Below, piece after piece: positions 44,149 through 59,626 of a stretch of 60,730 nucleotides of DNA; the stretch's first letter is position 1, and each line of letters opens with the position of its first letter. Origin of the DNA: a virus. Its lineage: Duplodnaviria > Caudoviricetes. Location: positions 1-60,730 of the IMG/VR virus record IMGVR_UViG_3300028844_003505; one strand, given 5' to 3'. The notes beneath the pieces are model-generated. The model was not told the DNA's origin and did not search any database. It saw nothing but the letters and a program-made list of their open reading frames with translations. The translations under genes and the position numbers were made by a program.

Positions 44149-44174
44149 CATAATAGACCAAAACGACTTATTTT

Positions 44175-44209
44175 AAACCCCTAGATCGTTTTGGTCTAGG
44201 GGTTTTTTT
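44175..44209 (+). terminator. Intrinsic terminator ending late/lysis transcript
   Basis: AAACCCCTAGA-loop-TCTAGGGGTTT plus T run. Confidence 0.85.
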
Positions 44210-44212
44210 ATG

Positions 44213-44241
44213 TTGACAAATGACTACATGTTTGCTATCAT
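44213..44241 (+). promoter_or_regulatory. Sigma70-type promoter opening the RNA island
   Basis: TTGACA-17-TATCAT with TG extension. Confidence 0.75.
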
Positions 44242-44556: not shown

Positions 44557-44967
44557 AATAATATCTTGACATTCTCCCAATAATTTGTTAGAATGGTATT
44601 TCAAGATTAGCAATTTGTTGGGAGTCTTTATGGGAAGAACCAGAATATATAAAGAAGTTGATTCTAAGGAATTTGTTAAACAATTAAAAGCAAATAATAA
44701 AAAGATAGATTTGAGTCGAGTATCGTGGAAAATAATATACGATACAAAACTCAGCAGTAAAGTCGAAATTCCAAGGATAGTTGAAACTATGAAAGTACGA
44801 CATGGAGTTTACGACTTGAGTAGAGTGTAATTACTAACCCTAAAATTTGAATAATCAGATTGGAGGTAGCCGATGAATTTCATGGCTTGCACTATACGAA
44901 GTTTAATTTAAATTTTTACAACTAACTTATAAATTAAACTAAACTAGAGACTAGGGGTACAATTTTC

Positions 44968-45101
44968 GGATTTAATATTCATAACTAGTACTGATAAATA
45001 CGCTATCCATTAGAGGATAGAAAAGGAGGTTAGATTCCTTCACAATCGTAGAGAGATTGTTAGTATAATGCAGGGAAACTTATAGTTTATCATAAAAATC
45101 C
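44968..45101 (+). ncRNA. Circularly permuted tRNA-like RNA 2
   Basis: TGATAAA/TTTATCA closing stem, CTATCC/GGATAG hairpin, T arm GGAGG-TTAGATT-CCTTC, closed acceptor ACAATC/GATTGT, D-like arm. Confidence 0.6.
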
Positions 45102-45402
45102 AATCAAGATAGAATTTTCTTTTGGTTGAAGTCCACAAAAAATCGGGGTTTGTATAATGATCCTAAAATCCCAAATCAATATGCATATAATGAGATGATA
45201 TAGAAGTAATAATAGAAGGTATACAGGCTATGGGGCTAATAACCTGAAAGAATGGTGATGACCTTTCTTTAAAGCCCCAAAAATTCGGTATAAATTTTAC
45301 AGGCCGGGGAGTCAGTATCGCCGGGTGGGTCGGGTAGCTTGGGGGCTACCAAAGGTTTTCTGGTTTATCCTTGGGCAAGAAAAACCAGACAAAAATTTTT
45401 AT

Positions 45403-45471
45403 CTTCCCTTGCAAACGGAAGTGGTTCAGGTGTATGAGTTAAGTGGTTCTCATATAAATAAAAAACCACCA
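45403..45471 (+). ncRNA. Hairpin + pseudoknot RNA ending ACCA, copy 1
   Basis: CTTCC-CTTGCAAAC-GGAAG; TATGAG/CTCATA stem; loop GTGGTT pairs tail AACCAC. Confidence 0.55.
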
Positions 45472-45480
45472 GAAAATTAT

Positions 45481-45553
45481 GTCTTCGTGCAAAAGAAGGG
45501 CCTACGCAGATATGAGTTTGGAAGTTCTCATATAAAACAAAAACTATCCACCA
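45481..45553 (+). ncRNA. Hairpin + pseudoknot RNA ending ACCA, copy 2
   Basis: CTTC-GTGCAAAA-GAAG; TATGAG/CTCATA stem; loop TGGAAGTT pairs tail AACTATCCA. Confidence 0.55.
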
Positions 45554-45559
45554 AATTTT

Positions 45560-45635
45560 TGTAGTGTAGTATAATCGGTATTGCGCCTGTCTGTTAAACA
45601 GTAAGATGTAGGTTCGAGTCCTACCACTACAGCCA
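45560..45635 (+). tRNA. tRNA-Asn(GTT)
   Basis: Cloverleaf, U1-A72, G73, encoded CCA. Confidence 0.93.
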
Positions 45636-45639
45636 ATAT

Positions 45640-45715
45640 GTACCTGTAGCTCAGTTGGTAGAGCGTTTGTCTGTTAAACAAATGGTCGTAGGTTCAAGTC
45701 CTACCGGGTACTCCA
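45640..45715 (+). tRNA. tRNA with GTT anticodon (Asn) and atypical acceptor
   Basis: Cloverleaf; G1-C72, U73, CCA. Confidence 0.88.
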
Positions 45716-45846
45716 AAAGAGAAATAATATGGAACAAGAAATAAAAAAATTCTTCGACAAAACATTGGTTCCAGCTTTAGAAAATATGACCAAAGAAGAA
45801 TTGTTAAAATTGGATTGGTTTACAATAGAGGTTCCAGATAATAATG

Positions 45847-45930
45847 TCCGAAGTGGGATGAGAGATGATAACACCGTCCGTTAGGTAGCACCTACACACG
45901 CTAGGGGTAGTGTCCTAGCCTTCGGAATCA
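45847..45930 (+). ncRNA. Degenerate cloverleaf tRNA mimic
   Basis: TCCGAAG/CTTCGGA closing stem + ATCA end; three inner hairpins, the middle one with a 3-nt loop. Confidence 0.5.
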
Positions 45931-46028
45931 TTTTTTTATAAGAGTATATTACGAACAATTGGAAAGATGAATGGGTTGGTATTGAAAAAACACTTGACAA
46001 ATAATTTATATATGATAGGATATAAATC

Positions 46029-46514
46029 ATGAAAACTATAAACGAAACATTGGAATTTATCAAAGAAGCCCACAAAGGTCAAATTGACAAATCGGGTATT
46101 GAATACTGGAAACATCCACTACAAGTTATGTTGTTACTTCCTCCGAATGCTACTATTACCGAACAATATGTAGCATTACTTCATGATGTTTTAGAAGATA
46201 CGGAGTATACAGAAAAAGATTTGCTTAATCTTGGATACACACAACAAATTGTCGATGCAGTAAAATTAGTTTCGAGAGATAAAAATCAAACTTATAATGA
46301 ATTTATCAATAGTATTATTGATAGTAATAACATAACCGCAATAGTAGTTAAAATTACTGATATGGTTCATAATATGTCAGAAGAAAGATTTGAAAAGTTA
46401 TCTGAAGAAAATAAGATAAAACAAAATGAAATCAATGAAAAAAGATATAAACCAAATATGAAAAAATTAGCTAATAAATTAGTAGAACTTGTCAAGTTAG
46501 GAATAAAATTATAA
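46029..46514 (+). CDS. HD-domain (p)ppGpp-hydrolase-like protein (small alarmone hydrolase/Mesh1-like)
   Basis: AHKGQ.DKSG..Y..HP, ALLHDVLEDT, VKITDMVHN motifs. Confidence 0.85.
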   Translation: MKTINETLEFIKEAHKGQIDKSGIEYWKHPLQVMLLLPPNATITEQYVALLHDVLEDTEYTEKDLLNLGYTQQIVDAVKLVSRDKNQTYNEFINSIIDSNNITAIVVKITDMVHNMSEERFEKLSEENKIKQNEINEKRYKPNMKKLANKLVELVKLGIKL

Positions 46515-46518
46515 TTTT

Positions 46519-46593
46519 CCCTCTATAGTGTAATGGACAACACAGGAGTTTTCTACACTTTTAATTCGGGTTCGAATCCTGATAGGGGGTCCA
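46519..46593 (+). tRNA. tRNA-Arg(TCT)
   Basis: Cloverleaf with CCA. Confidence 0.9.
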
Positions 46594-46603
46594 AAAATAA
46601 AAT

Positions 46604-46668
46604 GGTAGAGTTCCCCGGAGGGGGGGATATAGTACTGTAGGTGGTTCGATCCCATCACTCTATCGCCA
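46604..46668 (+). ncRNA. 65-nt tRNA mimic without a normal anticodon arm
   Basis: 8-bp acceptor GGTAGAGT/ACTCTATC + GCCA; T arm GGTGG-TTCGATC-CCATC. Confidence 0.65.
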
Positions 46669-46676
46669 AATATCAT

Positions 46677-46891
46677 GCGAGATTAGTAGGAGTGACCATA
46701 CTAGTTAAACGGATACTTCTACTGTCACGCACCACATATCATGTGCCAAGGTTTTTTGTAATCATTTTATACTAGTTACGGATGTTGAGAAATACTTGGC
46801 ACACCAAATATCATGAGGGGTTCTTGTCTAACTCATACTAGTTAAACGGATGAAGACGGATTAAGATGGTTAATAGCCAGAACCCTCACCA
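46677..46891 (+). ncRNA. Array of three CCA-tailed hairpin RNAs (46677-46734, 46743-46806, 46815-46891)
   Basis: Each preceded by ATATCAT, closed by a terminal stem, ends ACCA and carries ATACTAGTTA(AA)CGGAT. Confidence 0.7.
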
Positions 46892-46893
46892 AA

Positions 46894-46992
46894 TTTTGAG
46901 TTATATCTAAAACAGGATTGCATGGGTGGCATCTGTGTAAGCGGGTTGACGTTGGGCCTAAGCCAAGGCGAGCAACTATTTATAACTCAAAA
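46894..46992 (+). ncRNA. Structured three-way-junction RNA candidate
   Basis: TTTTGAGTTATA/TATAACTCAAAA closing stem enclosing two GC-richer hairpins. Confidence 0.5.
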
Positions 46993-47006
46993 ACAATTTT
47001 TTACAT

Positions 47007-47081
47007 GGTCCTATCGTTTAGTGGTTAGGACTCTTGATTGTCGATCAAGTAGCCGGAGTTCGATTCTCCGTAGGACCGCCA
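47007..47081 (+). tRNA. tRNA-Asp(GTC)
   Basis: Cloverleaf, G73, CCA. Confidence 0.93.
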
Positions 47082-47102
47082 TTTATTATATAAAGGAATT
47101 AT

Positions 47103-47345
47103 ATGTTTTATCCAATTAAGGTTTATTCAGGGAAAGAATTAGAAGATTATACAAAAGAATCTGGTGATATTATGTCTTCTAAAGTTAGGAAAAATAAAAA
47201 AGGTAAAATAATTTCTCCTAAGCAACTGGATAAAGAATATTGGAACGAATTTGAAAAACAAGAAAAAATATTAAAGGATTTGTCAGTTGGTGTTGTTGAT
47301 GTAAAACAACCAGCCGTTCCTTATAATGATGTGTATTACGAATAA
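47103..47345 (+). CDS. Hypothetical protein
   Basis: ORF with AAGGA RBS between tRNAs. Confidence 0.55.
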   Translation: MFYPIKVYSGKELEDYTKESGDIMSSKVRKNKKGKIISPKQLDKEYWNEFEKQEKILKDLSVGVVDVKQPAVPYNDVYYE

Positions 47346-47354
47346 AATTATTAA

Positions 47355-47430
47355 GCCTTCATAGCTCCAATGGTAGAGCAGGAACTTTGTAAGTTCATGG
47401 TTGGGAGTTCGAATCTCTCTGAAGGCTCCA
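47355..47430 (+). tRNA. tRNA-Thr(TGT)
   Basis: Cloverleaf, CCA. Confidence 0.92.
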
Positions 47431-47678
47431 TTTTTTATCAAAAAGGAATATATATGCAAAATTATAATATAGCTACAACAACCAAAATGTGTACGATGAT
47501 TATTGCAGATTATAATGAACATATGAAACGAAGTATTCCAGAAGTACAAGAACAGTTTCCAGAAATGGATGACAAAGAAATTTTATATTTACTATTACAA
47601 AAATCGATGGAAATATTTGAACAAAACGATTGTCTTTGGAATTAATAATAGAATAAACTCAATAGAGAAGGTTCGATC

Positions 47679-47714
47679 ATGACACAATTTAACACATACA
47701 AACACAAACCATAG
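47679..47714 (+). promoter_or_regulatory. Leader peptide MTQFNTYKHKP upstream of tRNA-Lys
   Basis: AGAGAAGG upstream; two AAA codons; its 3' end is complementary to the tRNA-Lys 5' end. Confidence 0.45.
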
Positions 47715-47761
47715 CCTGTACACCATGCGCCTTGCGTATACGTGTACATGCGTATTAACGT

Positions 47762-47838
47762 GGGCTGTTGGTGTCAATGGTTAGCACATCCGACTTTTAA
47801 TCGGTAAGGTGTAGGTTCGAATCCTATACGGCCTACCA
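47762..47838 (+). tRNA. tRNA-Lys(TTT)
   Basis: Cloverleaf, CCA. Confidence 0.93.
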
Positions 47839-47879
47839 ATTTTTTTGTTGACAAAGAATAAAAATGAGGTTATATTGTT

Positions 47880-48170
47880 ATGGACAAATTAAAAATAGAA
47901 TCTGATGGTGAAAAAAAAGATATTCTTCGAGGAAGATCATTTAAAACATATTGCTTCAATTGTGAATATATAATTAAAGCATCTGAATATAGGGGAAGAG
48001 TTCATTTATGTTCTATAGTAGGTCTTACTTCATATGTTGGAACATATGCAGAGATGCAACCATGTTCGGATGTTAATCTTCATGGGGATTGTGAAGAATA
48101 TAAGCAAGTAAAAATACCAGAAGCAAAACCGGGATTCATCGATACTGTTATACAATGGTTTAAAGAATGA
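47880..48170 (+). CDS. Cys-rich hypothetical protein
   Basis: CFNC..C..C..N.HGDC; own promoter at 47848. Confidence 0.6.
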   Translation: MDKLKIESDGEKKDILRGRSFKTYCFNCEYIIKASEYRGRVHLCSIVGLTSYVGTYAEMQPCSDVNLHGDCEEYKQVKIPEAKPGFIDTVIQWFKE

Positions 48171-48246
48171 GAAGATTGTGGTTAATAATAGTTATCATAA
48201 TTATCTCGATAATAATGTTACTTAAAAATTTATAGGAGAATATGAT

Positions 48247-48723
48247 ATGAATACATCTGAAACACCAACAAAAGACAACGTACTAAGGAGAACCATCCAT
48301 CTACGAGAAAGACTTAATGGCGTAGTCCAACCGACAGGTGGCGCAACGGTTACTTGTGATTACGACAAAGATACCAAACAACTCAGGTTTGCAGTTGCTT
48401 TGTGTTCGACCAAAGATGGGTTTTGTAAGAAAAAAGGTCGATTAATCTCACAAGGAAGACTGGTTACTGGGTTTGTTGCTGATGATCCATATACAATGAT
48501 CGCCGGACATCGGTTTGTTTTTCGTGCTACTGTTCCTGAAAATGTTAGGTTTGTAAATGTTATTTATGATACTATTCAGGATGTATTGAAAAATGATAAA
48601 TGGATCAAAGAACCAGATGTAAGCAATCTGGAAGATATTGCGTATCTTTGCGAAGATACTATCCATTACACAACACAGAAATATACAGAAGAAAATCTAT
48701 TGACACAGCCAATAGATTATTAA
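48247..48723 (+). CDS. Phage hypothetical protein
   Basis: GGATV..AVALCSTKDGFCKKKGR motif; AGGAG RBS. Confidence 0.65.
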   Translation: MNTSETPTKDNVLRRTIHLRERLNGVVQPTGGATVTCDYDKDTKQLRFAVALCSTKDGFCKKKGRLISQGRLVTGFVADDPYTMIAGHRFVFRATVPENVRFVNVIYDTIQDVLKNDKWIKEPDVSNLEDIAYLCEDTIHYTTQKYTEENLLTQPIDY

Positions 48724-48729
48724 AAACTA

Positions 48730-48808
48730 TGCGAGTTCGCCTAGTCTGGTCTAAGGCATCTGTTTCATACGCAGATTAACGTTGGTTCAAATCCAACACT
48801 CGCAACCA
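48730..48808 (+). tRNA. tRNA-CAT (Met; fMet/Ile2 not excluded)
   Basis: Cloverleaf, CAT anticodon, CCA. Confidence 0.88.
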
Positions 48809-48814
48809 AAATAT

Positions 48815-48974
48815 GAGAGAGTGTGTATCGGTTTATACTATGGGAGTGGAGAAAGTTCTGTTAGTAATAGTCACTTATAAGGTTACTAATGTAGTGTTCA
48901 TAATCCCGCAAGATATTGATAGCATGTTATTATATATCAGCCGTTAGCGAATATCCAACAATACACATTCTCCC
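48815..48974 (+). ncRNA. ~160-nt multibranch structured RNA candidate
   Basis: GAGAGAGTGTGTAT/ATACACATTCTCCC closing stem; inner TTAGTAAT/GTTACTAA and CCGTTAGCGG hairpins. Confidence 0.55.
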
Positions 48975-48982
48975 TTTTTAAT

Positions 48983-49057
48983 GGTGGATATAGTTCAAGT
49001 AGAACGGTTCGGTTGTGACCCGGATTGTTGTGGGTTCAAGTCCCATTATTCACCCCA
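48983..49057 (+). tRNA. tRNA-His(GTG)
   Basis: G-1:C73 pair, GTG anticodon, CCA; short D loop. Confidence 0.88.
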
Positions 49058-49093
49058 ATTAATTTAATAACTTAAACCTTTGAGGATTTTATT

Positions 49094-50245
49094 ATGAGCG
49101 AAAATGAAACCATTACAAAAAAGTTTGTACCAACAAATCACAATGTACTGAAAACGGATAATGATAATCATATCGTTGCCAAAAATATTAGCAGTACGGT
49201 AGAACTTAATTCATCATTTCATGAGATGGATGTCTATGGTATTATCAACATGAGATCGTTGAAAAATTTTGATGATTTCTTGAAAGAGTTTCCAAGTAAA
49301 GAGTTTACTGCAAACTTCGATGATTCTTTCAATCTGAAATTGGATTATACTTCGGTTTATAATATTGTAAAGAATTTTGGAGAACTGGCATTATATCAAA
49401 ATCGGTATTACTCGAAATATAAAAATTGTTTGTGTTTGTTTAATATAGATGCTGATTCTAAGAAAACTCAGTTTTCGTATGATATTTATGGTCATGATAT
49501 GACTGAAGTTTTGTCGGTTGCAAACGAGTTTTATAAATCTATCGAAACTTATATTTTTGATGAAAACCATATCAATCTTAAATGGTTGTATATGGACGAA
49601 AATAAACAGTCGAGAGATCATGATGTACAAGTAAAGTATGACGATGTTGTGTTGGCAGAAGCATATCCATTTATTGAAAACTTCTCCAACTACATCGATA
49701 ACTATTTGAATAGTGAAGAAACTATTCTGGTATTGCAGGGAGAACCGGGAACTGGTAAGACTCGATTGATTCGACAGTTGTTAACGGCAATGTCTAAGTT
49801 CCACAATGGTAATAAATATTTTGGATTCACAACATCACCAGAGTTGATTGACAAAGAAACTTTTTACATGCAGTTTTTGTTAAGTGATGGTTATGGTGGA
49901 ATGGTTCTTGAAGATTCTGATACCAGTATTACTTCAAGAAAAAAAATCAGCGAGAACACAACGATCAGTAAAATGTTATTTGCTTCTGATGGATTTATTC
50001 CGCATAATAAGAAAATTATTTTGAGTACAAATCTTGATGTAACAGACATCGATGATGCGATTACTCGAAGTGGACGATGTTATGATTTTGTAAAGACTCG
50101 AAAATTGAGTCCAACCGAAATCAGAACTTTCATGGATGCATACAACAAGAAATTTAATTTGAGTGTCGAGATTCGAGAATTTCATCAAGATGCTCCGTTG
50201 TGTGATGTTTATAAAGCAATAAAGAATACAACAGAAAAGAAATAA
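49094..50245 (+). CDS. AAA+ ATPase
   Basis: GEPGTGKT, VLEDSD, ILSTN, DDAITRSGRC motifs. Confidence 0.85.
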   Translation: MSENETITKKFVPTNHNVLKTDNDNHIVAKNISSTVELNSSFHEMDVYGIINMRSLKNFDDFLKEFPSKEFTANFDDSFNLKLDYTSVYNIVKNFGELALYQNRYYSKYKNCLCLFNIDADSKKTQFSYDIYGHDMTEVLSVANEFYKSIETYIFDENHINLKWLYMDENKQSRDHDVQVKYDDVVLAEAYPFIENFSNYIDNYLNSEETILVLQGEPGTGKTRLIRQLLTAMSKFHNGNKYFGFTTSPELIDKETFYMQFLLSDGYGGMVLEDSDTSITSRKKISENTTISKMLFASDGFIPHNKKIILSTNLDVTDIDDAITRSGRCYDFVKTRKLSPTEIRTFMDAYNKKFNLSVEIREFHQDAPLCDVYKAIKNTTEKK

Positions 50246-50252
50246 GTTTAAT

Positions 50253-50330
50253 CGGAGTGTAGCACAGTCTGGTCAGCGCACATGCTTTGGGAGCATGGGG
50301 TCGTAGGTTCGAATCCTACCACTCCGACCA
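50253..50330 (+). tRNA. tRNA-Pro(TGG)
   Basis: Cloverleaf, C1-G72, CCA. Confidence 0.95.
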
Positions 50331-50346
50331 AATTAATTTAGAAAGT

Positions 50347-50421
50347 CTGGAATGTAGGTGTTGAATCCTACCATCAAAATAGAGTTATGGATGTTTCGAT
50401 GTAGTTTAAGAAAAACACCAG
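50347..50421 (+). ncRNA. Circularly permuted tRNA-like RNA 3
   Basis: CTGG / T arm GTAGG-TGTTGAAT-CCTAC / CATC...GATG closed acceptor / TA-GTTT-AAGAA-AAAC / CCAG. Confidence 0.6.
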
Positions 50422-50436
50422 CTTAGAATTAAAAGA

Positions 50437-50536
50437 GCCGAGAGTATGGGTTCGAATCCCATTATGTAATTAAAGTGTATGCCTATCCATAACTATTTAT
50501 ATATTTATCATATAGTTTAATTGGTAGAACATCGGC
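50437..50536 (+). ncRNA. Circularly permuted tRNA-like RNA 4
   Basis: GCCGA / ATGGG-TTCGAAT-CCCAT / TATG...CATA closed acceptor / TAGTTTAATTGGTAGAACA / TCGGC. Confidence 0.75.
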
Positions 50537-50602
50537 GTTTACCTTTCGCTAGGGTGTAGTGTAACAGAACATAAACAATTATTTAAGTTAGGGGGTCTAA
50601 CT

Positions 50603-51733
50603 ATGAATAAATTTAAAGCACCAGAAGAAGCATCTAACATATATATAGACCATGTTAGCAAAAAAGCAAAGTTTGATTATTTGATTTATATTGGAAGATT
50701 TCAACCATTTCATAATGGACACAAGAAAGTAGTTGAAACTGGTTGTGCTATTTCAGATAAAGTGATTATATTGTGTGGTTCGTGTAATGTTCCTAGAACT
50801 ATTAAGAATCCATTTATATTTGAAGAACGAAAGAATTATATAGAGAAAACATTCGAGCATACTGAATATAAAGATCAGGTTATTATTAGAGGTCTTAATG
50901 ATATGGCATCTAATTCCGAATGGATAATTCAAGTCCAAAATATAATTAATGCATTGACAGAAGCTAATATCTCTGAAAATGTAAAGATTGGAATTATTGG
51001 ACATATGAAAGATGAATCATCTTGGTATCTGGAAAAATTGAATCTAGAATTTATTGAAGTTGGTATTTACAAAGACAGTACAAATATTGCAAATAAAAAA
51101 GTAGATTCTACTGATATTAGGAATCATATTTTTACAAATGAGCAGTACGAGTATAAAAATATAATTTCTGATGCAATGCAATATTGGCTTGAAGATTGGA
51201 AACGAGAAAAATGGGATGTGTATGAACATCTTCAAAAAGAGTATAAATTCAATAAAGAATATAAAAAGCAATGGGAAGGTTCTCCATTCCCTGTTCAATT
51301 TGTAACTGTTGATGCAGTAGTAGTTCAAAATGGACATATTCTTCTAATACAAAGAAAAACACAACCGGGTAAAGATTTATGGGCATTGCCGGGTGGGTTT
51401 TTAAATGAAGATGAAACATTACGTGAAGGAGTTTTACGAGAACTTAAAGAAGAAACACAATTAAAAGTTCCATCTAAGATTTTAGCAACACATATTCAAA
51501 ATCAAAATTCAATAGCTTTTGATAATCCACATAGATCGTTGAGGGGTAGAACAATTACTCACGTATTTGTTTTTAACTTACAACCTGATCCAGAAACTGG
51601 ATTATCTAATATCAAAGGCTCCGATGATGCGAAAGATGCTAAATGGGTTCCTTTGAACGAGTTCGACAAGATGGCAAAGGAAATGTTTGAAGATCATTAT
51701 TTTATTGCCGAGCATTTTATTAAACAATTATAA
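50603..51733 (+). CDS. nadM: Bifunctional NMN adenylyltransferase / Nudix ADP-ribose pyrophosphatase (NadM-Nudix, NatV-like)
   Basis: IGRFQPFHNGH, STDIR, ALPGGF..ETL..GVLRELKEET, GSDDAKDAKW motifs. Confidence 0.95.
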   Translation: MNKFKAPEEASNIYIDHVSKKAKFDYLIYIGRFQPFHNGHKKVVETGCAISDKVIILCGSCNVPRTIKNPFIFEERKNYIEKTFEHTEYKDQVIIRGLNDMASNSEWIIQVQNIINALTEANISENVKIGIIGHMKDESSWYLEKLNLEFIEVGIYKDSTNIANKKVDSTDIRNHIFTNEQYEYKNIISDAMQYWLEDWKREKWDVYEHLQKEYKFNKEYKKQWEGSPFPVQFVTVDAVVVQNGHILLIQRKTQPGKDLWALPGGFLNEDETLREGVLRELKEETQLKVPSKILATHIQNQNSIAFDNPHRSLRGRTITHVFVFNLQPDPETGLSNIKGSDDAKDAKWVPLNEFDKMAKEMFEDHYFIAEHFIKQL

Positions 51734-51770
51734 TTACAATATTAATAACTTATTTTAAGGGGGTCTTAAA

Positions 51771-53204
51771 ATGAATAAACGAAATATTATTTTAAATACT
51801 GATAGTTATAAACTTAGTCACTATAAACAATATCCAAAAGACACACAAACGATTTACTCTTATATTGAAAGTCGTGGTGGTCGATTTGATAAAACATTAT
51901 TCTTTGGTTTGCAAATGTTTATTAAAGAATATTTACAGAAACCGATCACCGCAGTAGATATTCTTGAAGCAAAAGATGTTGCAGAAAAACATGGTCTTTC
52001 CTTTAATGAGGAAGGATGGAATTACATTCTTAAAGAACATGGTGGCAAACTACCATTAAAAATCAGAGCAGTTAATGAAGGTGTTCTTGTTCCAGTATCT
52101 AATGTGATGGTGACGATGGAAAATACTGATCCGAAATGTTTTTGGCTAACTAACTATATCGAAACAGCACTGTTGCGAGCAATTTGGTATCCAACCACAG
52201 TAGCTACACAGAGTTATGAGATAAAGAAAATGATTTATAAATACTTAGAGGAAACTTCTGATGATCCAGATACAGAGATTGGTTTCAAATTACATGATTT
52301 TGGTGCAAGGGGAGTATCTAGCTTTGAGTCTGCTGGTATTGGTGGACTTGCACATCTTATAAATTTTATGGGTACAGATACGCTTACGGCTCTCCTGTAC
52401 GCCCGTGAATATTATAATGAAGATATGGCGGGATTTTCTTGTAACGCATCCGAACATTCTACTATTACTGCATGGGGTCGTAAGTTCGAGCGAGAAGCAT
52501 ACGAGAATATGATAAATCAGTATGGTGGCGAGGGTAAGATGTTTGCTTGTGTATCTGATTCTTATGATATCTATAATGCAGTAAACAATATTTGGGGAAA
52601 TCAACTAAAAGAAAAGGTTATTAATAATGGTGCTAGATTAATTATCAGACCTGATTCTGGAGTTCCAGAAAAAGTTGTTCCGCAAATTTTAAAAGACCTT
52701 ATGAACCATTTTGGTTCTACCAAAAATTCTAAAGGATATTTGGTATTGCCGGATTATGTTCGAGTTATTCAAGGTGATGGAATTAATTTTGATTCTATTA
52801 AACGTATTCTTGAAAAACTAAAAGAATGTGGAATTAGTGCCGACAACGTTGCGTTTGGTATGGGTGGAGCATTGTTGCAACAGTTAGACAGAGATACACA
52901 ACAATTTGCAATGAAATGTTCTGCTATCTTGAGAGATAATAAATGGGAAGATGTTTACAAAGAACCAGTGACTGATGCTGGTATGTCTTTTCAGAAAAAA
53001 TCTAAGCCGGGAAGATTGACTCTGATTTGGGATAATGTCAAGAAAAAACACAGAACAGAAAGATATCCATTAGCACACCAACCTTGGCAAGCAGGACCAG
53101 CTAATGAATGGTCTCATATGGAAGTAATGCATACTGTTTTTGAAAATGGAAAACTAGTTGCAGAATCTTCTTTGAAAGATATTCGTAGTAGAGTTAAATT
53201 ATAA
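51771..53204 (+). CDS. nadV: Nicotinamide phosphoribosyltransferase
   Basis: TDSYKLSH, LHDFGARG, ASEHS, VSDSYD, IRPDSG, IQGDG, FGMGGALLQ motifs. Confidence 0.96.
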   Translation: MNKRNIILNTDSYKLSHYKQYPKDTQTIYSYIESRGGRFDKTLFFGLQMFIKEYLQKPITAVDILEAKDVAEKHGLSFNEEGWNYILKEHGGKLPLKIRAVNEGVLVPVSNVMVTMENTDPKCFWLTNYIETALLRAIWYPTTVATQSYEIKKMIYKYLEETSDDPDTEIGFKLHDFGARGVSSFESAGIGGLAHLINFMGTDTLTALLYAREYYNEDMAGFSCNASEHSTITAWGRKFEREAYENMINQYGGEGKMFACVSDSYDIYNAVNNIWGNQLKEKVINNGARLIIRPDSGVPEKVVPQILKDLMNHFGSTKNSKGYLVLPDYVRVIQGDGINFDSIKRILEKLKECGISADNVAFGMGGALLQQLDRDTQQFAMKCSAILRDNKWEDVYKEPVTDAGMSFQKKSKPGRLTLIWDNVKKKHRTERYPLAHQPWQAGPANEWSHMEVMHTVFENGKLVAESSLKDIRSRVKL

Positions 53205-53227
53205 ATAATAATCTTGGATGGCGTTTT

Positions 53228-53314
53228 ATGAAAAAAAATCTATTTGTGAAGGATAATATCAAATCAGAGATATACGGGAGCATGAAATATGCTCCCGTAG
53301 CTCAATGGCAGTAG
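53228..53314 (+). promoter_or_regulatory. Leader ORF reading into tRNA-Ile(UAU) with an anti-acceptor hairpin
   Basis: MKKNLFVKDNIKSEIYGSMKYAPVAQWQ; ATA codon at 53270 directly precedes TACGGGAGCAT, which pairs with ATGCTCCCGTA. Confidence 0.5.
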
Positions 53315-53362
53315 CGGTCTCCTTATAAGAGATTGACGTAGGTTCGAATCCTACCGGGAGCA
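53291..53362 (+). tRNA. tRNA-Ile(TAT)
   Basis: Cloverleaf, loop CT-TAT-AA, A73; CCA not encoded. Confidence 0.85.
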
Positions 53363-53397
53363 TAATTTATGCTCATAAAATTTAAAGGGGTATAATT

Positions 53398-53856
53398 ATG
53401 ATTGATAAATTTGAAGGTGATTATAGATTTTTATCTAATTTTTGGGAGTGTCCTATTCTTTGGAATGGTGTTACATATAAATCAGCAGAACATTTTTATC
53501 AAGCTAGAAAAGCAATAACACCAGAAGATCACGAAAAAATTCGTAATGCTTCAGTCTCTGAATGCAAACGAATTGGTAATAGAATAGATATTCGTGATGA
53601 TTGGGATAGTATTAAAATTCGTGTCATGGATGATGTTGTGTTTTTAAAGTTTACACAGAACAAAGATTTACAAATAAAACTCATGAAAACATTTCCTTCT
53701 CGATTAGTTGAAGGTAATACATGGCATGATAATTTTTGGGGAAATTGTACTTGTAAAAAATGCAGTAAACAATTTGGAAAGAATTATTTAGGACAAACTC
53801 TAGAACATTGGAGACAAATGTTTATTGTGGATATGATAGAAAAATTGGGGTCGTAG
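53398..53856 (+). CDS. NADAR family ADP-ribosylhydrolase (YbiA-like)
   Basis: FLSNF, SAEHFYQARK, LKFTQN, LVEGNTWHDNFWG, GKNYLG motifs. Confidence 0.92.
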   Translation: MIDKFEGDYRFLSNFWECPILWNGVTYKSAEHFYQARKAITPEDHEKIRNASVSECKRIGNRIDIRDDWDSIKIRVMDDVVFLKFTQNKDLQIKLMKTFPSRLVEGNTWHDNFWGNCTCKKCSKQFGKNYLGQTLEHWRQMFIVDMIEKLGS

Positions 53857-53923
53857 CTAAATTGGGAAAGCACCTGCTTTGCACGTAGAAGATGTGAGAG
53901 TTCGAATCTCTCCGACTCCACCA
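53847..53923 (+). tRNA. tRNA-Ala(TGC)
   Basis: G3:U70, TGC anticodon, ACCA. Confidence 0.93.
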
Positions 53924-53984
53924 AATTATTTAATAAGAAAGTATCGAAATTGATATTTATTAATTTAAACGAAAGTGAATACGT

Positions 53985-54629
53985 ATGAAAAAAAATTATA
54001 GTAAACTTGTTTACATCATGGATCGATCTGGTTCTATGCATGGATTGACTGAAAAATCTGTAGAAGGATTTAATTCTTTTGTTCAAGATCAAAAGAAAAT
54101 TGAAGGAACCGCAGATTTAACTCTTGCAATTTTTGATACTGAATATGAAACAGTATTTGAAGATGTAGATATTAAATCTGTTCATCCAATCACGGAAAAA
54201 GATATTTATGCAAGAGGTATGACAGCATTGTTGGATGCTATTGGTAGAACAATCGATTCTGTAGGATCAAAGATAGATAAACTTGGGGAAAATCAAAAAC
54301 CAGAACATGTTGTAGTTGTGGTTATGACAGATGGACACGAAAATTCCTCACAAGAATACAATAGAGAACAAATTAAAAAGTTGATTACCCAACAGGAAGA
54401 TGTTTATAATTGGAATTTTCTATTCATGGGAGCAAATCAAGACTCATTTGCTACTGGTGGTGGTCTAGGATTTAAGAGCGGAAATATTTCAAATTTTGAC
54501 GCATCTATTCAAGGAGCCGCAACTGCATATTCAACAACTTCAAATTTTGTTGGTAATCTTCGATGTAAGGTAGAAAATAAATCTTTGTCAGATACATACA
54601 AAGACGAAGAAGAAAAATTATCAAAATAA
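53985..54629 (+). CDS. vWA-domain protein
   Basis: DRSGSM, TALLDAIG, MTDGHENSS, FLFMGANQD motifs. Confidence 0.9.
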   Translation: MKKNYSKLVYIMDRSGSMHGLTEKSVEGFNSFVQDQKKIEGTADLTLAIFDTEYETVFEDVDIKSVHPITEKDIYARGMTALLDAIGRTIDSVGSKIDKLGENQKPEHVVVVVMTDGHENSSQEYNREQIKKLITQQEDVYNWNFLFMGANQDSFATGGGLGFKSGNISNFDASIQGAATAYSTTSNFVGNLRCKVENKSLSDTYKDEEEKLSK

Positions 54630-54634
54630 CTTGT

Positions 54635-54708
54635 AGGGAATTAGTATAATGGTAGTACGTTTCTTTTACATGGAAAATGCGGGGGTTCGATACCCTCATT
54701 CCCTACCA
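54635..54708 (+). tRNA. tRNA-Val(TAC)
   Basis: Cloverleaf, ACCA. Confidence 0.9.
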
Positions 54709-54787
54709 TTTTGATGTGGAAAAATATAAAATAATATCTTGACGTATCAATGAAGTTGTGTTACACTGTATTATAACAATCAAACAA

Positions 54788-54862
54788 GCGGGTATAGTTC
54801 AATTGGTAGAACTACTGCCTTCCAAGCAGAAGACATCGGTTCGATTCCGGTTATCCGCTCCA
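54788..54862 (+). tRNA. tRNA-Gly(TCC)
   Basis: GCG acceptor start, U73, CCA; promoter TTGACG-17-TACACT at 54739. Confidence 0.93.
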
Positions 54863-55041
54863 TATAACTGTCAGGAGACTAATTATGGTAAATGATTTAG
54901 ATACAATACACACCAAAAAAATTAATTCTGGTCTTATGGTTCATGTTAACGGACACCCATTGAGTGTAGAAGAAGAAAAGAAGTTGAAAAAATGTATTAA
55001 GAAATCAAGAAAATCATTGAATATAAAGAAGTAGATATTAT

Positions 55042-55102
55042 GCCTTGAAGCTATTTATAATTTCATACATGTCGGTATGGATGGAATAGTGGATAGGCTC
55101 CA
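55042..55102 (+). ncRNA. CCA-tailed hairpin RNA, divergent member of the ATAC...GGAT family
   Basis: GCCT/AGGC + TCCA end; apical TTTCATAC-ATGTCG-GTATGGATG. Confidence 0.45.
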
Positions 55103-55110
55103 AATAACTT

Positions 55111-55186
55111 TCCAAGGTAGCTTACATGGTGAAAGCATTCGGTTGAAGCCCGATAGAGGTGGGATCGTTACCTACCCTTGGAACCA
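55111..55186 (+). tRNA. tRNA-Phe(GAA) with atypical T loop
   Basis: Cloverleaf, ACCA; T loop ATCGTTA. Confidence 0.82.
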
Positions 55187-55217
55187 AATTTATTATTAAT
55201 TTTTTAATCATGGAGAA

Positions 55218-55976
55218 ATGATTATGCCAAAATTACATGAAATTCTAGCAGTAGAAGGATCGGTACAGGGAGCATCAAAGGATATTATCAAGGAAACTGA
55301 AAATACCTTTACCAACAAATCCACACATTTTCGTGGTGGTGTTAAACAGTATGTTCCTTTCTCTGAAGATGAAAAGGAATCCGAAGCATATCAAGAGTCA
55401 ACCGAAATGGTAACTTCGGTAGACAAGAAACTCGAACATTTTTGGGGAGTAGTTTCTAATGAATTGGATGTTACCTTCCAAAAAGAATGTACCAATCAGG
55501 AAGCGGTTGCTGATATTATTGTGGAAGGAAAAACTTTAAAAACAGGAGTTCCTGTTGGATTCTTGCTTGGTCTCGAAGCTAAGATCAAAGAATGGCGAAG
55601 AGTTCTTAAAGCAATTCCAACTCTACAACCGGGTGTAAAATGGGAACGAGATGTAGACCGGGGAGAAGATGTTTGGACTACAACACCTGATCCGGCGTTT
55701 CGAACACGTAAAGAAGTTCGATTCAAAGTTATGGTTCCTCCAACGGAAAAACATCCTGCCCAACTTGAGAAATGGAACGAGCAAGTTAATTGTGGTAAAT
55801 TCAATACAACCATTTGGTCTGGTGAGTATTCTACCGCACAAAAAGCAGAATTGCTAACTCGTTTGGATAGACTCGAACATGGTGTTAAACAAGCACGTAA
55901 TAGAGCCAATTCAATCGAAGTAAAAGATTTAGAAATTTCAGATGAATTAAGAAATTATTTAATCAGAGGTATTTAA
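55218..55976 (+). CDS. Conserved helical protein of unknown function (DUF7873-like, from recollection)
   Basis: KLHEILAVE, VPVGFLLGLE, IPTLQP..W, PPTEKHPAQ, WSG, AR.RAN motifs. Confidence 0.6.
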   Translation: MIMPKLHEILAVEGSVQGASKDIIKETENTFTNKSTHFRGGVKQYVPFSEDEKESEAYQESTEMVTSVDKKLEHFWGVVSNELDVTFQKECTNQEAVADIIVEGKTLKTGVPVGFLLGLEAKIKEWRRVLKAIPTLQPGVKWERDVDRGEDVWTTTPDPAFRTRKEVRFKVMVPPTEKHPAQLEKWNEQVNCGKFNTTIWSGEYSTAQKAELLTRLDRLEHGVKQARNRANSIEVKDLEISDELRNYLIRGI

Positions 55977-56070
55977 TTTTGTGGTGCAATTTTATTATTA
56001 TTATTAGCGACAACATATCATTATCGTTATAATATTAGCCACCAAATTTATTGTAAATCTTCTATATATA

Positions 56071-56179
56071 GTATGTTGCAGACCCTTAAACATTAAGGAA
56101 TGGGTTCGAATCCCATCCCAGCCTCCAAAATTATCATGGCTGGGTAGTTTAATGGCAGAACGTAATGGTATTAGCATAC
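56071..56179 (+). ncRNA. Circularly permuted tRNA with internal CCA (RNA 5)
   Basis: CATTA / ATGGG-TTCGAAT-CCCAT / CCCAGCC-TCCA / spacer AAATTATCAT / GGCTGGG-TA-GTTTAATGGCAGAAC-G / TAATG. Confidence 0.8.
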
Positions 56180-56211
56180 ACGGGACTGTTAAGAGAATTA
56201 TGTAGAATACA

Positions 56212-56281
56212 AACAGTCGCCCAACTGGTTAGGGCAATAGTTATTGAAAACTATCGGTTGCGGGTTCGATTCCCGCCTGTT
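56212..56281 (+). ncRNA. tRNA-like element with 5-bp acceptor, non-7-nt anticodon loop and no CCA
   Basis: Good D arm GCCC-AACTGGTTA-GGGC and T arm GCGGG-TTCGATT-CCCGC. Confidence 0.65.
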
Positions 56282-56292
56282 AAAACAACTTT

Positions 56293-56328
56293 GGGGAGTC
56301 GGCAAGGATATGTCGGCTCCCTTCTTTT
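56293..56328 (+). terminator. Intrinsic terminator
   Basis: GGGAGTCGGCA...TGTCGGCTCCC-TTCTTTT. Confidence 0.75.
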
Positions 56329-56342
56329 ATATTTAAAAAATT

Positions 56343-56546
56343 ATGAATGAATATTGGCAATTTCCAAAACCGGATATACTAAAACGAATTGGATTTCCAT
56401 GCTCCTTTTGTAGCAGTAATCATGAAGACGATGGTGTATACATCATAGCGGGTCCGGGTGTTTATATATGTAGTGAGTGTGTGGAACTGTGTAACGAAGT
56501 ATTGGCAGAACAAAATAAAAAATCACATAATGCGGTAGGATTTTAA
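56343..56546 (+). CDS. Stand-alone ClpX C4 zinc-binding domain
   Basis: CSFC...[21 protein letters not shown]. Confidence 0.88.
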
Positions 56547-56547
56547 A

Positions 56548-57126
56548 ATGAGTGTACGATTAGACAAATTTTTAGTAATTGATCTTGAAGCTACTTGTTG
56601 GGAAGATGGTGTTGCTCCAAATGGAAAACTTCAAAAAGAAGAATCTGAAATTATTGAAATAGGAGTATGTGAAGTATTTAAATTGGATAATAAATACCAT
56701 ACCGGAAGATTGCAAAGTTATTATGTAAAACCAACAAAACATATTATAAGTGATTATTGTGAAGAATTAACAGGTATATCAGAATCACTATTGGAAGATA
56801 AAGGAACTACTTTAGATAGAGCATTGCATAACTTCAATAAAGATTTCGCCCCAAAATATAAACCATATATGGCATGGGGAAATTATGATAAGAAACAAAT
56901 CTTAAAGGAATGTGAAGAAAAGCAGATACTTAATAGGTATAAATTTTCAGATACATATCTAAATATAAAGAATTTGTTTTCATTAAAATATGGATTAGAT
57001 AAAGAAATTAGATTGAGTAAAGCATTAGAACTTGCAGGTATGGAATTTATTGGAAATGCTCATAGTGGAAAAGATGATGCACACAATACAGCTAGAATTT
57101 TATTGAAACTTATTAACCCTCTATAG
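56548..57126 (+). CDS. DEDDh 3'-5' exonuclease (ERI1/KapD-like)
   Basis: VIDLEATC, EIIEIG, ELTGI, WGNYD, HSGKDDA motifs. Confidence 0.9.
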   Translation: MSVRLDKFLVIDLEATCWEDGVAPNGKLQKEESEIIEIGVCEVFKLDNKYHTGRLQSYYVKPTKHIISDYCEELTGISESLLEDKGTTLDRALHNFNKDFAPKYKPYMAWGNYDKKQILKECEEKQILNRYKFSDTYLNIKNLFSLKYGLDKEIRLSKALELAGMEFIGNAHSGKDDAHNTARILLKLINPL

Positions 57127-57190
57127 TGTAATGGATGCATACGACTCTTCGAAAGTCTTGGTCAGGGTTCGAATCCTTGTGGGGGGTCCA
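57117..57190 (+). tRNA. tRNA-Arg(TCG)
   Basis: Cloverleaf, CCA; 5' end shared with tRNA-Arg(TCT). Confidence 0.88.
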
Positions 57191-57209
57191 AATAAAGATG
57201 GGATAAATT

Positions 57210-57629
57210 ATGAATATGATATCTGAAAAAATCAATAAATGGCATGTTGAAAATTGTGAAATATTAGAACCAGAAACATCAAATTTTTTGGAAATATTAG
57301 AACAGGATGTCAGCGAACTCAAAACGGTTGAAAGTAATAAAGCTGAGTTAGCTAATTTAATTGTTGAACATCAAAGAGAGATATCTGGATGGGAAGAAGA
57401 AGTATCCTCATATAAGTCTTCATATTATGATTTGAAAGAGTGTATAGAAACTTTGACAGATGATATCATACACGAGGTATCAAACATAAAACAAACGATA
57501 ATTGATGAATATTTATATGATTTGAAAGACGTTGATAAAAAAACATATATAGAAGAAAAGTTACGATTGTACGAAAATAACATTGATAATCATATATGGA
57601 AATTTAATAGCAACAATTATCATTTTTAA
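57210..57629 (+). CDS. Coiled-coil hypothetical protein
   Basis: ORF track. Confidence 0.55.
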   Translation: MNMISEKINKWHVENCEILEPETSNFLEILEQDVSELKTVESNKAELANLIVEHQREISGWEEEVSSYKSSYYDLKECIETLTDDIIHEVSNIKQTIIDEYLYDLKDVDKKTYIEEKLRLYENNIDNHIWKFNSNNYHF

Positions 57630-57631
57630 AC

Positions 57632-57706
57632 GGGTCGATAGTGTAACGGTAACATGACAGTCTCCAAAACTGTTCGATGTGGGTTCGAATCCTACTCTAC
57701 CCGCCA
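57632..57706 (+). tRNA. tRNA-Trp(CCA)
   Basis: Cloverleaf, G73, CCA. Confidence 0.9.
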
Positions 57707-57721
57707 AAAATAAATACATAC

Positions 57722-57796
57722 AGGGGATTGGTGTAACGGTTATCACGTTTGGTTTTGGTCCAGAAGATACGAGTTCGATTCTTGTATCCCCTTCCA
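57722..57796 (+). tRNA. tRNA-Gln(TTG)
   Basis: Cloverleaf, CCA. Confidence 0.88.
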
Positions 57797-57819
57797 CCTT
57801 TAAATAGGAGTGAGTAAAA

Positions 57820-58119
57820 ATGAGTAAAATACACAAGTACGATCAATATACACAATTAAGAAAAGATCAAAAAGCAGAGTTTGTTAATAATCAATTAATA
57901 AATATAATTGATGATATCGAAAGAAATTTACTACTATATCAAGAAAAAGTGGATGAAGTAAAATCAAAAAAAGAAATGTTAAAAAAGGTTTTAGAAAGTG
58001 ATGATGTAGATGAAATTTTTCATTATATTAGTAATAACTGTAATAATCATAGTAGAGGATATGATATTGACGAACAGTGGAGAATTTTTCAAGATAAAAC
58101 AAAACTAAATAGAGGATAA
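57820..58119 (+). CDS. Hypothetical protein
   Basis: AGGAG RBS. Confidence 0.6.
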   Translation: MSKIHKYDQYTQLRKDQKAEFVNNQLINIIDDIERNLLLYQEKVDEVKSKKEMLKKVLESDDVDEIFHYISNNCNNHSRGYDIDEQWRIFQDKTKLNRG

Positions 58120-58124
58120 ATATT

Positions 58125-58559: not shown

Positions 58560-58584
58560 CAAAAGTTCTTTAAGAAGGGATGGT

Positions 58585-59241: not shown

Positions 59242-59247
59242 ATTATA

Positions 59248-59478: not shown

Positions 59479-59489
59479 AGGAAAGTAAG

Positions 59490-59552
59490 ATGGACGACTA
59501 TTATTATAGAGAAAATCACATAACTAATAAGGTGAGTTGCATGAATGGTTAA
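59490..59552 (+). promoter_or_regulatory. Leader ORF MDDYYYRENHITNKVSCMNG reading into tRNA-Tyr
   Basis: AAGGAAAG RBS; TAT-TAT-TAT; stop codon lies in the tRNA D arm. Confidence 0.5.
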
Positions 59553-59616: not shown

Positions 59617-59626
59617 AATATATTGT

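Follow-up and report, generated by a model that had tools for sequence, protein, structure and literature searches.

Two tandem, pseudoknot-capable units with tRNA-like 3′ ends in front of a phage tRNA cluster: possible mimics of the tRNA acceptor end

Introduction

Directly in front of the first tRNA gene of a viral contig from IMG/VR (IMGVR_UViG_3300028844_003505; 60,730 bases, analysed over the whole length and called the window in the following) two related units stand in tandem. In each of them a short hairpin displaying TGCAAA is followed by a second hairpin whose loop is complementary to the tail of the same unit, and the tail runs into ACCA. The question raised by this locus is what the two units are: RNAs that resemble the end of a tRNA, a small gene, a DNA site or the remains of a duplication. 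The answer we prefer, at a probability of roughly 0.4, is that they are leader modules of the tRNA operon which mimic the acceptor end of a tRNA and are handled by the tRNA-processing machinery, in a position analogous to that of the species 1 and species 2 RNAs of bacteriophage T4.

The contig has a completeness estimate of about 33% and is present in marine metagenome runs. Its DNA polymerase is of the T4 gp43 type and shares 38-40% identity with the enzymes of cyanomyophages and of the Pelagibacter phage HTVC008M, and the contig is therefore assigned to a distant marine T4-like phage. All 21 tRNA genes (45560-59701; 20 found by ARAGORN, 21 by Rfam including one borderline match) and every large open reading frame (ORF) except one (594-1076) are located on the + strand. 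The two units are part of a stretch of about 730 nt (44831-45559) in which no convincing gene is present.

Anatomy of the two units

The units, which align without gaps, repeat after exactly 78 nt (45397-45474 and 45475-45552) and agree at 47 of 78 positions (about 60%). Their parts, named H1 for the 5′ hairpin, S1 for the second stem and S2 for the possible pairing between the S1 loop and the tail, are as follows:

45397..45474, + strand: unit 1, with H1 hairpin, linker, pseudoknot domain and ACCA tail; 78-nt period; 91.5 bits with a covariance model built from both copies
45403..45421, + strand: H1 of unit 1, 5 bp, CTTCC (45403-07) with GGAAG (45417-21), 9-nt loop CTTGCAAAC (RNA CUUGCAAAC); 4 of the 5 pairs are in the minimum-free-energy fold
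45431..45456, + strand: S1 of unit 1, 8 bp, TGTATGAG (45431-38) with CTCATATA (45449-56), 10-nt loop TTAAGTGGTT (RNA UUAAGUGGUU); -6.8 kcal/mol alone
45443..45471, + strand: S2 of unit 1, loop GUGGUU (45443-48) with tail AACCAC (45464-69); ACCA at 45468-71
45475..45553, + strand: unit 2, with H1 hairpin, linker, pseudoknot domain and ACCA tail; 95.6 bits with the same model
45482..45499, + strand: H1 of unit 2, 5 bp including one U-G pair, TCTTC (45482-86) with GAAGG (45495-99), 8-nt loop GTGCAAAA (RNA GUGCAAAA)
45510..45533, + strand: S1 of unit 2, 7 bp, ATATGAG (45510-16) with CTCATAT (45527-33), 10-nt loop TTTGGAAGTT (RNA UUUGGAAGUU); -5.4 kcal/mol
45519..45553, + strand: S2 of unit 2, loop TGGAAGTT (RNA UGGAAGUU, 45519-26) with tail AACTATCCA (RNA AACUAUCCA, 45542-50), A46 bulged; ACCA at 45550-53
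45319..45396, + strand: possible degenerate third copy (unit 0), of low confidence; direct repeats D5 (78% over 18 nt, spacing 81) and D3, inverted repeat I10

All parts named in a preliminary description of the locus, that is the tandem copies, the TGCAAA hairpin, the TATGAG/CTCATA stem, the A-rich linker, the complementary tails and the ACCA, were found in place. H1 and S1 are separated by 9-10 nt, and an A-rich linker of 7-8 nt follows S1 (AATAAAA in unit 1). The tail of each unit is complementary to the 3′ part of its own S1 loop. With the tail paired there, S2 abuts the 3′ strand of S1 with zero bases in between, and loops of 3-4 nt (L1) and 7-8 nt (L3, A-rich) are left, which is the classical geometry of an H-type pseudoknot. 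It is plausible that such a pseudoknot is sterically possible in both units. If the ACCA is kept free, S2 comprises 4 bp in unit 1 (G45-C67 to U48-A64) and 7 bp with the bulge in unit 2. Unit 1 contains a second GUGGUU (45421-26) within an exact 9-nt repeat, AAGTGGTTC. The putative unit 0 shows a hairpin GGUAGC/GCUACC, then CUGGUUU/AAACCAG around a small hairpin, and a tail AAAAACCAGACAAAAATT which resembles that of unit 1; it has no CCA.

Two blocks are invariant between the units, TGCAAA and TATGAGTT-N5-GTTCTCATATAAA. The 26-nt core formed by the latter is unique to the two units in the window at up to 3 mismatches, and 100 shuffles gave 0 matches. When the window was scanned with the covariance model and filters off, no third copy was detected; the next best hit reached 22.6 bits, as against 95.6 and 91.5 for the units. 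Divergence is distributed unevenly, with invariant runs of 8 and 13 nt, and H1 stays a 5-bp hairpin in both units though most of its stem positions differ. Judged from their sequences, the two units are real, diverged paralogues.

Copy-specific complementarity between loop and tail

Each tail fits the loop of its own unit better than that of the other. The cognate scores are 6 for unit 1 (6 bp) and 8 for unit 2 (8 bp, one bulge), and the cross-copy combinations score 4 and 3. Compared with that of unit 1, the tail of unit 2 has 4 additional nt; the length of the S1 loop is unchanged, and 4 of its 10 positions are changed to match. Shuffled tails reached the observed score in 1860 of 20000 cases for unit 1 (9.3%) and in 541 of 20000 for unit 2 (2.7%). 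Among 370 hairpins of the window with a 6-bp stem, a downstream complement scoring at least 6 was found for 23 and one scoring at least 8 for 4, two of the latter being unit 2 itself. The joint chance of both matches, with only the positions that differ between the copies randomised, is 0.57% (loops and tails) or 0.08% (tails only). As a stand-alone hairpin S2 is predicted at -5.0 kcal/mol in unit 1 and -3.6 kcal/mol in unit 2; like those of S1, these energies are modest. Taken singly these pairings are weak evidence; taken jointly, they are better.

tRNA-like 3′ ends

Like the anatomy and the copy-specific complementarity, the tRNA-like ends of the units are observed directly. In this genome CCA is encoded by 18 of the 21 tRNA genes, and in 17 of these 18 an A or a T comes next, usually as the beginning of an A/T run. 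The units end in ...AACCA-CCA-gaaaatt and ...ATCCA-CCA-aattttt, almost the same as the phage tRNA-Tyr (...CACCA-CCA-aatat). An encoded 3′ NCCA with a trailer like that of this genome's tRNAs is thus present in both units. With the ACCA unpaired, the helix of unit 2 has the length of an acceptor stem (7 bp, one bulge), and the 4-bp helix of unit 1 is stacked on the 8-bp S1, giving 12 bp in total. Both units then show U at position -1, a closing G(+1)-C pair and A as the discriminator; 12 of the 21 tRNA leaders likewise end in T.

The motif CCACCA as such occurs 56 times in the window, as against 14.7 +/- 4.1 expected. Most copies (43) are on the - strand, TGGTGG being frequent on the coding strand; among the 13 on the + strand, two are the unit ends and two are real tRNA ends (Ala and Tyr).

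A possible route from the leader to small RNAs

For the transcription, processing, stability and any function of the units we infer the following course, which draws on the tRNA genes directly downstream:

45554..45715, + strand: A/U spacer of 6 nt, from 45554, then two tRNA-Asn(GTT) genes (45560-45635 and 45640-45715), the first of 21 tRNA genes

Each module would consist of an anticodon-arm-like hairpin displaying U-GCA-AA and of an H-type pseudoknot, or an equivalent S2 minihelix; at the end of the outer helix the (A)CCA would be unpaired, with an A/U-rich trailer behind it. The design of the 3′ end would be the same as in the phage's own tRNAs. The modules would be co-transcribed with the tRNAs, in the 5′ leader of a long tRNA transcript. 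Between the promoter-like sites (~45040-45160) and the tRNAs no terminator-like site was found on the + strand, and co-transcription is therefore the natural expectation. The 3′ sides of the modules would be freed by the RNase P cut at the 5′ end of tRNA-Asn and by cuts in the A/U spacers, and 3′ exonucleases would trim them to the CCA beside the helix. RNase P may also take the pseudoknot with its RCCA for a tRNA acceptor; the cut in loop 1 would then fall before G45 in unit 1 and before G20 (45520) in unit 2. A cut by bacterial RNase P in loop 1 of an H-type pseudoknot with a 3′ RCCA is described by Kosek et al. (PMC12710915), where pseudoknots of tRNA-like structures (TLS) and some phage RNAs are also presented as substrates of this enzyme. 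The products would be small RNAs which mimic a tRNA end and which would be comparable in their genomic logic to the stable species 1 and species 2 RNAs of T4. Our preferred guess is that, amid many genes of the counter-defence type, they would engage enzymes recognising tRNA acceptor ends, as decoys or competitors.

Candidate tandem -10 elements for the tRNA operon were noticed 5′ of the units, as GTT(A/T)GTATAATG at 45059-45070 and 45148-45159, 89 nt apart. The same upstream region contains a 21-nt repeat (45126-46 and 45268-88).

Comparison with T4 stable RNAs and plant-virus tRNA-like structures

The closest known counterpart in genomic logic would be the pair rnaD and rnaC of T4, and in structural idea the acceptor of plant-virus TLS. 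In the T4 record the two genes, rnaD for species 2 and rnaC for species 1, follow one another immediately next to tRNA-Arg and are annotated only as 'small, stable RNA'; these RNAs arise through tRNA-processing enzymes and, to our knowledge, have no assigned function. Both loci have two small non-tRNA units in tandem beside a tRNA gene, on the same strand, in a T4-like phage; the DNA polymerase of the window is 39% identical to a cyanomyophage gp43. Like the units, rnaD runs into an encoded CACCA and an A/T-rich trailer (aattat). The sequences, however, are not similar: blastn-short of 45160-45559 against rnaC and rnaD gave only words of 7-8 nt at E >= 1. The T4 genes are also longer (119 and 139 nt, as against about 75-80 nt) and stand at the 3′ end of their cluster, whereas the units stand at the 5′ end. 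Furthermore, rnaC has a canonical T-arm (GGTTCGAATCC); the units have no T-arm and have the option of a pseudoknot instead.

With TLS of the turnip yellow mosaic virus (TYMV) type the units share a 3′ strand ending in ACCA that can pair with a hairpin loop, a stacked helix end that would imitate an acceptor stem, and an anticodon-like hairpin 5′ of the pseudoknot. They differ in being located in a DNA phage and not at the 3′ end of a genome, in having no elbow of T-loop and D-loop, and in a stacked helix of 12-14 bp without a capping T-loop. As for the acceptor itself, the complementarity is present and copy-specific in the two paralogues at hand, and the 6-bp helix of unit 1 uses part of the ACCA. 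The suggestion that this is a TLS-like RNA is borne out only in part. A plausible H-type pseudoknot, the copy-specific match and the ACCA with its A/T-rich trailer speak for it; the units have no match to a TLS family of Rfam, no T-loop or D-loop and no ARAGORN tRNA call, and they would be internal to a DNA-phage transcript. The comparison of the UGCAAA hairpin with a Cys or Ala anticodon loop was not sustained, the conserved U-GCA-AA being displayed in loops of 9 and 8 nt and not of 7.

The element is a singleton and may be set beside the non-tRNA companions of T4-like tRNA clusters. Should a distant marine T4-like phage indeed have another, unrelated pair of RNAs that resemble tRNA ends, this would point to such companions as a regular component of these clusters with a function, and an acceptor mimic built on a pseudoknot would, in a DNA phage, carry the idea of the tRNA-like structure beyond RNA viruses.

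Family and homologue searches

A search with cmscan against all 4227 Rfam families returned nothing for the element, neither at the gathering threshold (window) nor at E up to 10 (1001 nt and 166 nt around it). The units are therefore, as far as such models tell, not members of the curated TLS, ToxI, preQ1, tmRNA or 6S families. An Rfam search for ToxI and preQ1 had been suggested as a check, and neither was matched at E up to 10 on the 166 nt. The preQ1-I riboswitches are H-type pseudoknots in which a hairpin is followed by an A-rich tail that can run along the stem and pairs with the loop at its end, an architecture which the units would share. They differ from them in having no unpaired loop segment between S2 and S1 to hold the ligand-reading base, and in being followed by tRNAs and not by que genes or transporters. 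A tmRNA, a 6S RNA or a Y-RNA-like RNA was rejected as well, with no support from Rfam or ARAGORN; a YrlA match (36 bits) merely spans the two tRNA-Asn genes.

Homologues, from which covariation was to be checked, were not found in IMG/VR, the JGI metagenomes or the GenBank phages, and blastn of 45160-45559 against the latter gave nothing below E = 0.1. The exact 26-nt core pattern is matched at one IMG/VR locus (L003) and two JGI metagenome loci (L089 and L090), which were discarded; they show the same unrelated hairpin, antisense to a tRNA-Asn gene array and without a UGCAAA hairpin, a matching tail or a CCA. At L003 (5200-5900), as also at L089 and L090, an unrelated phage has several tRNA-Asn(GTT) genes in an array, interrupted by degenerate copies that resemble tRNA-Asn. 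A looser pattern, TATGAG-N10-CTCATATAAA, gave 54 matches at 52 loci of IMG/VR, none of them with an upstream TGCAAA or a CCA tail. One of these loci (L096) has a strong loop-tail pairing and was rejected as the 5′-UTR element of an unrelated gene. In this unrelated viral contig (7830-7995), a promoter-like site is followed by a 5′ UTR in which the loop GATTCC of a TATGAG/CTCATA hairpin pairs with GGAATC past an A-rich linker; located about 40 nt upstream of the start of the next long ORF (7992), it may be a regulatory pseudoknot.

Neighbouring proteins were also used as handles. The HD protein led to one locus (L004, 51% identity), which is non-syntenic and where the element is absent, and the 720-aa upstream protein has no relative. 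The DNA polymerase led to 80 loci at 34-43% identity, so that the lineage is isolated in the searched collections. When the covariance model R1 was applied to the whole records of 25 loci (23 of the 80 DNA-polymerase loci, mostly longer contigs, with L003 and L004), 4 weak matches were obtained (E 0.04-0.06, 18-21 bits), none with the architecture of the units.

Points against a tRNA-end mimic

A number of results weigh against our reading and are brought together here. The pairing of unit 1 alone is common by chance, as the 9% of tail shuffles and the 23 of 370 window hairpins indicate. The apparent covariation between the copies, as proposed in the preliminary description, holds insofar as the loop-tail match is copy-specific; when pairs are counted in the two-row alignment, S2 and H1 each contain a single clean compensatory pair, which is not significant, 135 of 500 shuffles doing as well. 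With no homologues in the three collections there is no phylogenetic covariation. The sequence of S1 is invariant between the units and therefore silent on the pairing of S1; its invariance fits sequence-specific recognition or a DNA motif equally.

Folding also gives competing structures. A nested fold through the second GTGGTT at 45421, already noted as a caveat, is real: the competing structure with GUGGUU 45421-26 is the minimum-free-energy structure of unit 1. For the whole of unit 2 (45475-45556) the minimum-free-energy fold, at -12.7 kcal/mol, drops H1 and S1 in favour of a long hairpin at about 45477-45515 and keeps the S2 hairpin; two conformers are therefore possible. The z-scores of the nested folds are weak (-1.82 for unit 1, +0.21 for unit 2 and -0.86 for the 400-nt leader). 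The two units also disagree with each other: the overhang is CA after the 6-bp S2 of unit 1 and CCA after the 8-bp S2 of unit 2, and with the ACCA free the stacked helices measure 12 bp and 14 bp, respectively.

Tests with tRNA models and for tRNA loops were negative as well. Neither a T-loop nor a D-loop motif is present in the units, and the S1 loops UUAAGUGGUU and UUUGGAAGUU are without a T-loop motif. ARAGORN detected 20 tRNAs in the whole window, none of them within 45380-45559; on 45380-45570 its standard and mitochondrial modes gave 0 genes, and the mitochondrial mode with lowered threshold 2 doubtful calls only. The tRNA model of Rfam has no match at the units, which are thus left without any tRNA or Rfam match. 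That the units are degenerate copies of a tRNA was rejected, since their semi-global alignment to all 21 tRNAs is no better than that of shuffles (p = 0.26-0.62), and this counts against a tRNA-end mimic, too. Finally, one reading frame stays open over 100 codons (45262-45564) and spans both units.

Alternative explanations

The least unlikely of the alternatives is that an old tandem duplication in the tRNA leader, affecting either the leader as such or a tRNA-like gene, has decayed into the present units, which would have no function of their own and only residual or fortuitous pairings. It agrees with the element being a singleton without a homologue in any searched collection, with the further degenerate copy that may lie upstream (D3 and D5), with a unit period (78-82 nt) equal to the period of the tRNA genes (80 nt), with the degenerate copies between the tRNA-Asn genes of another phage (L003), and with the weak folding z-scores. 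Decay leaves unexplained, however, why invariant runs of 8 and 13 nt persist in a pair that is only 60% identical, and why the pairing of H1 and S2 survives many substitutions, with a joint chance of 0.08-0.57% for the cognate match; nor was similarity to any of the 21 tRNAs detected. Constraint is favoured by the uneven conservation and by the pairings that were retained; we regard this explanation as unlikely.

Two alternatives were not part of the preliminary description, a 79-codon ORF that runs through both units and a late-promoter octamer, TATAAATA, in unit 1:

45325..45564, + strand: 79-codon ORF with GTG start, in frame through both units, TAG stop inside tRNA-Asn
45453..45460, + strand: TATAAATA, T4-type late-promoter octamer, over the 3′ strand of S1 and the linker of unit 1; unit 2 has TATAAAAC there

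A small protein of 79 aa with two 26-residue repeats, in which the conserved core encodes Y-E-(L/F)-x-x-S-H-I, is rather unlikely. The open frame of 100 codons stands out, as around 45450 the other two frames extend over no more than 4 and 7 codons. The repeat period of exactly 78 nt corresponds to 26 codons with no indel, the product was recorded by a gene caller in a public protein collection, and no off-frame window of real genes reaches the score of the ORF. This score, however, amounts to 0.11 per codon as against 0.54 +/- 0.18 for 151 real coding windows, of which only 0.7% are as low. Codon positions 1, 2 and 3 account for 12, 8 and 11 of the differences between the repeats; 18 codon differences are non-synonymous and 0 synonymous, and all 8 conserved codons agree at the third position, a pattern of constraint on the nucleotide level and not on the protein level. 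The start codon is GTG, and the nearest GGAG-type motif begins 18 nt upstream; this test is weak either way, since only 14 of 40 large ORFs have such a motif in the strict upstream window. Since the TAG lies inside tRNA-Asn and past the expected RNase P cut, processed transcripts would be left without a stop codon, which counts against the ORF. No relative was found by tblastn against phages (E up to 10), a search of 5.8 billion proteins (among proteins of 43-139 residues) returned the query alone, and the best Pfam match has E = 0.09. A single-sequence AlphaFold2 model of the product (no alignment) has a pLDDT of 45 and is uninformative rather than negative. The copy-specific complementarity of loop and tail is not predicted by a protein. 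A -1 frameshift signal was also considered and rejected: the A-AAA-AAC heptamer of unit 1 does not fit the register of the ORF, and the next pseudoknot is 43 nt away. If the element were an ORF or a decayed repeat, it would be of local interest only.

Quite unlikely, too, is a DNA element, with the T4-type late promoter TATAAATA in unit 1 and/or the 7-bp inverted repeat ATATGAG-N10-CTCATAT acting as an operator which controls the tRNA cluster. The octamer occurs 24 times in the window, compared with 14.1 +/- 3.3 expected, with 17 copies on the coding (+) strand and 7 on the other, and several copies lie 30-50 nt before start codons (1676, 2801, 8424, 8724, 22784 and 35216). From this enrichment and spacing, the phage probably uses late promoters of the T4 type. 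One copy is the one inside unit 1 (45453-60), and the S1 stem is invariant in sequence and not covarying, as would suit a DNA site. In unit 2, however, the octamer is absent and replaced by TATAAAAC, and the half-sites of the inverted repeat are 17 bp apart from centre to centre. The copy-specific complementarity, the retained H1 and the ends with ACCA and trailer are left unexplained by a DNA site.

That the units form a cis-acting leader RNA which is never released, such as an element for processive antitermination or one that stabilises the precursor or guides the processing of a tRNA/ORF transcript of about 15 kb, is in our view improbable. Their place at the very 5′ end of the cluster, downstream of the promoter-like sites, the two hairpins per unit and the lack of a terminator ahead of the tRNAs would suit such a role; no curated cis-regulatory family of Rfam is matched, and the tRNA-like ACCA ends are not explained by it.

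A more far-reaching form of the tRNA-end mimic has been considered with great reserve and appears still a little less probable than a leader element that acts in cis. Here, the units would be minimal tRNA-like RNAs in which the pseudoknot replaces the 5′ acceptor strand; released from the tRNA precursor with a genuine ACCA-3′OH, they would divert host defence enzymes directed at tRNA acceptor ends or anticodon loops, in the manner of decoys or sponges; enzymes of the toxSAS/CapRel type, which pyrophosphorylate the CCA, are an example. Their setting would be an anti-defence island with an HD_4-like hydrolase, NAD-salvage genes and NADAR as neighbours. In the toxSAS literature, these enzymes are described as pyrophosphorylating the CCA ends of tRNAs, and phage tRNA clusters are now presented as counter-measures to tRNA-damaging enzymes of the host (PMC10264068, PMC13096335). 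If true, both an RNA-based counter-defence by tRNA mimicry and a TLS-type pseudoknotted acceptor outside RNA viruses would be seen here for the first time.

Very improbable, finally, is the proposed mimic of a type III antitoxin (pseudo-ToxI-like) that neutralises a ToxN-type endoribonuclease of the host: the units do resemble ToxI and its relatives as tandem direct repeats that are pseudoknot-capable, have A-rich single-stranded segments and lie in a phage with genes of the counter-defence type, yet type III antitoxin arrays consist of near-identical repeats of about 34-48 nt beside a toxin gene of the ToxN/AbiQ/CptN type, whereas here just two units of 78 nt and 60% identity are present, with no Rfam match at E up to 10, with tRNAs and not a terminator and toxin gene after the array, and with 0 matches to PF13958 (ToxN_toxin) in six frames of the window, which covers about 33% of the genome.

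The tRNA cluster and its surroundings

Among the sequencing runs that contain the stretch, none of RNA is listed. In the contigs of 3 DNA runs compared with 44800-46100, the element is covered by the probable source sample only, with zero variants in it. The tRNA genes downstream are interspersed with small ORFs and accessory genes of the counter-defence type, located in the stretch 46029-57126. These are an HD_4-like hydrolase (46029-46514; E = 1.2e-4, below the Pfam cut-off), an NMNAT-like cytidylyltransferase with Nudix (50603-51733), NAMPT (51771-53204), NADAR (53398-53856), DUF7873 (55218-55976) and an RNase T-family exonuclease (56548-57126). It is a guess that the neighbourhood of the HD_4-like hydrolase, NMNAT-Nudix, NAMPT, NADAR and the exonuclease fits a role in conflicts over tRNA.

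Some genes of the cluster deviate from the others. A tRNA-like gene at 56210-56284 (45.8 bits with Rfam) is given no amino acid and a two-base 'anticodon' (tg) by ARAGORN, and it has ACA in place of the encoded CCA. The borderline match at 50395-50470 (29.3 bits, cut-off 29) has no ARAGORN call; it is followed by TAA, with no encoded CCA, as is tRNA-Ile(TAT) at 53290-53363.

Among the 370 hairpins scanned, the strongest match between loop and flank belongs to a hairpin CCCTAG/CTAGGG on the - strand (44168-44215), located between an ORF ending at 44148 and one starting at 44242. It has an 11-nt loop and a flanking complement of 10 nt; on the + strand the complementary segment is 5′ of the hairpin.

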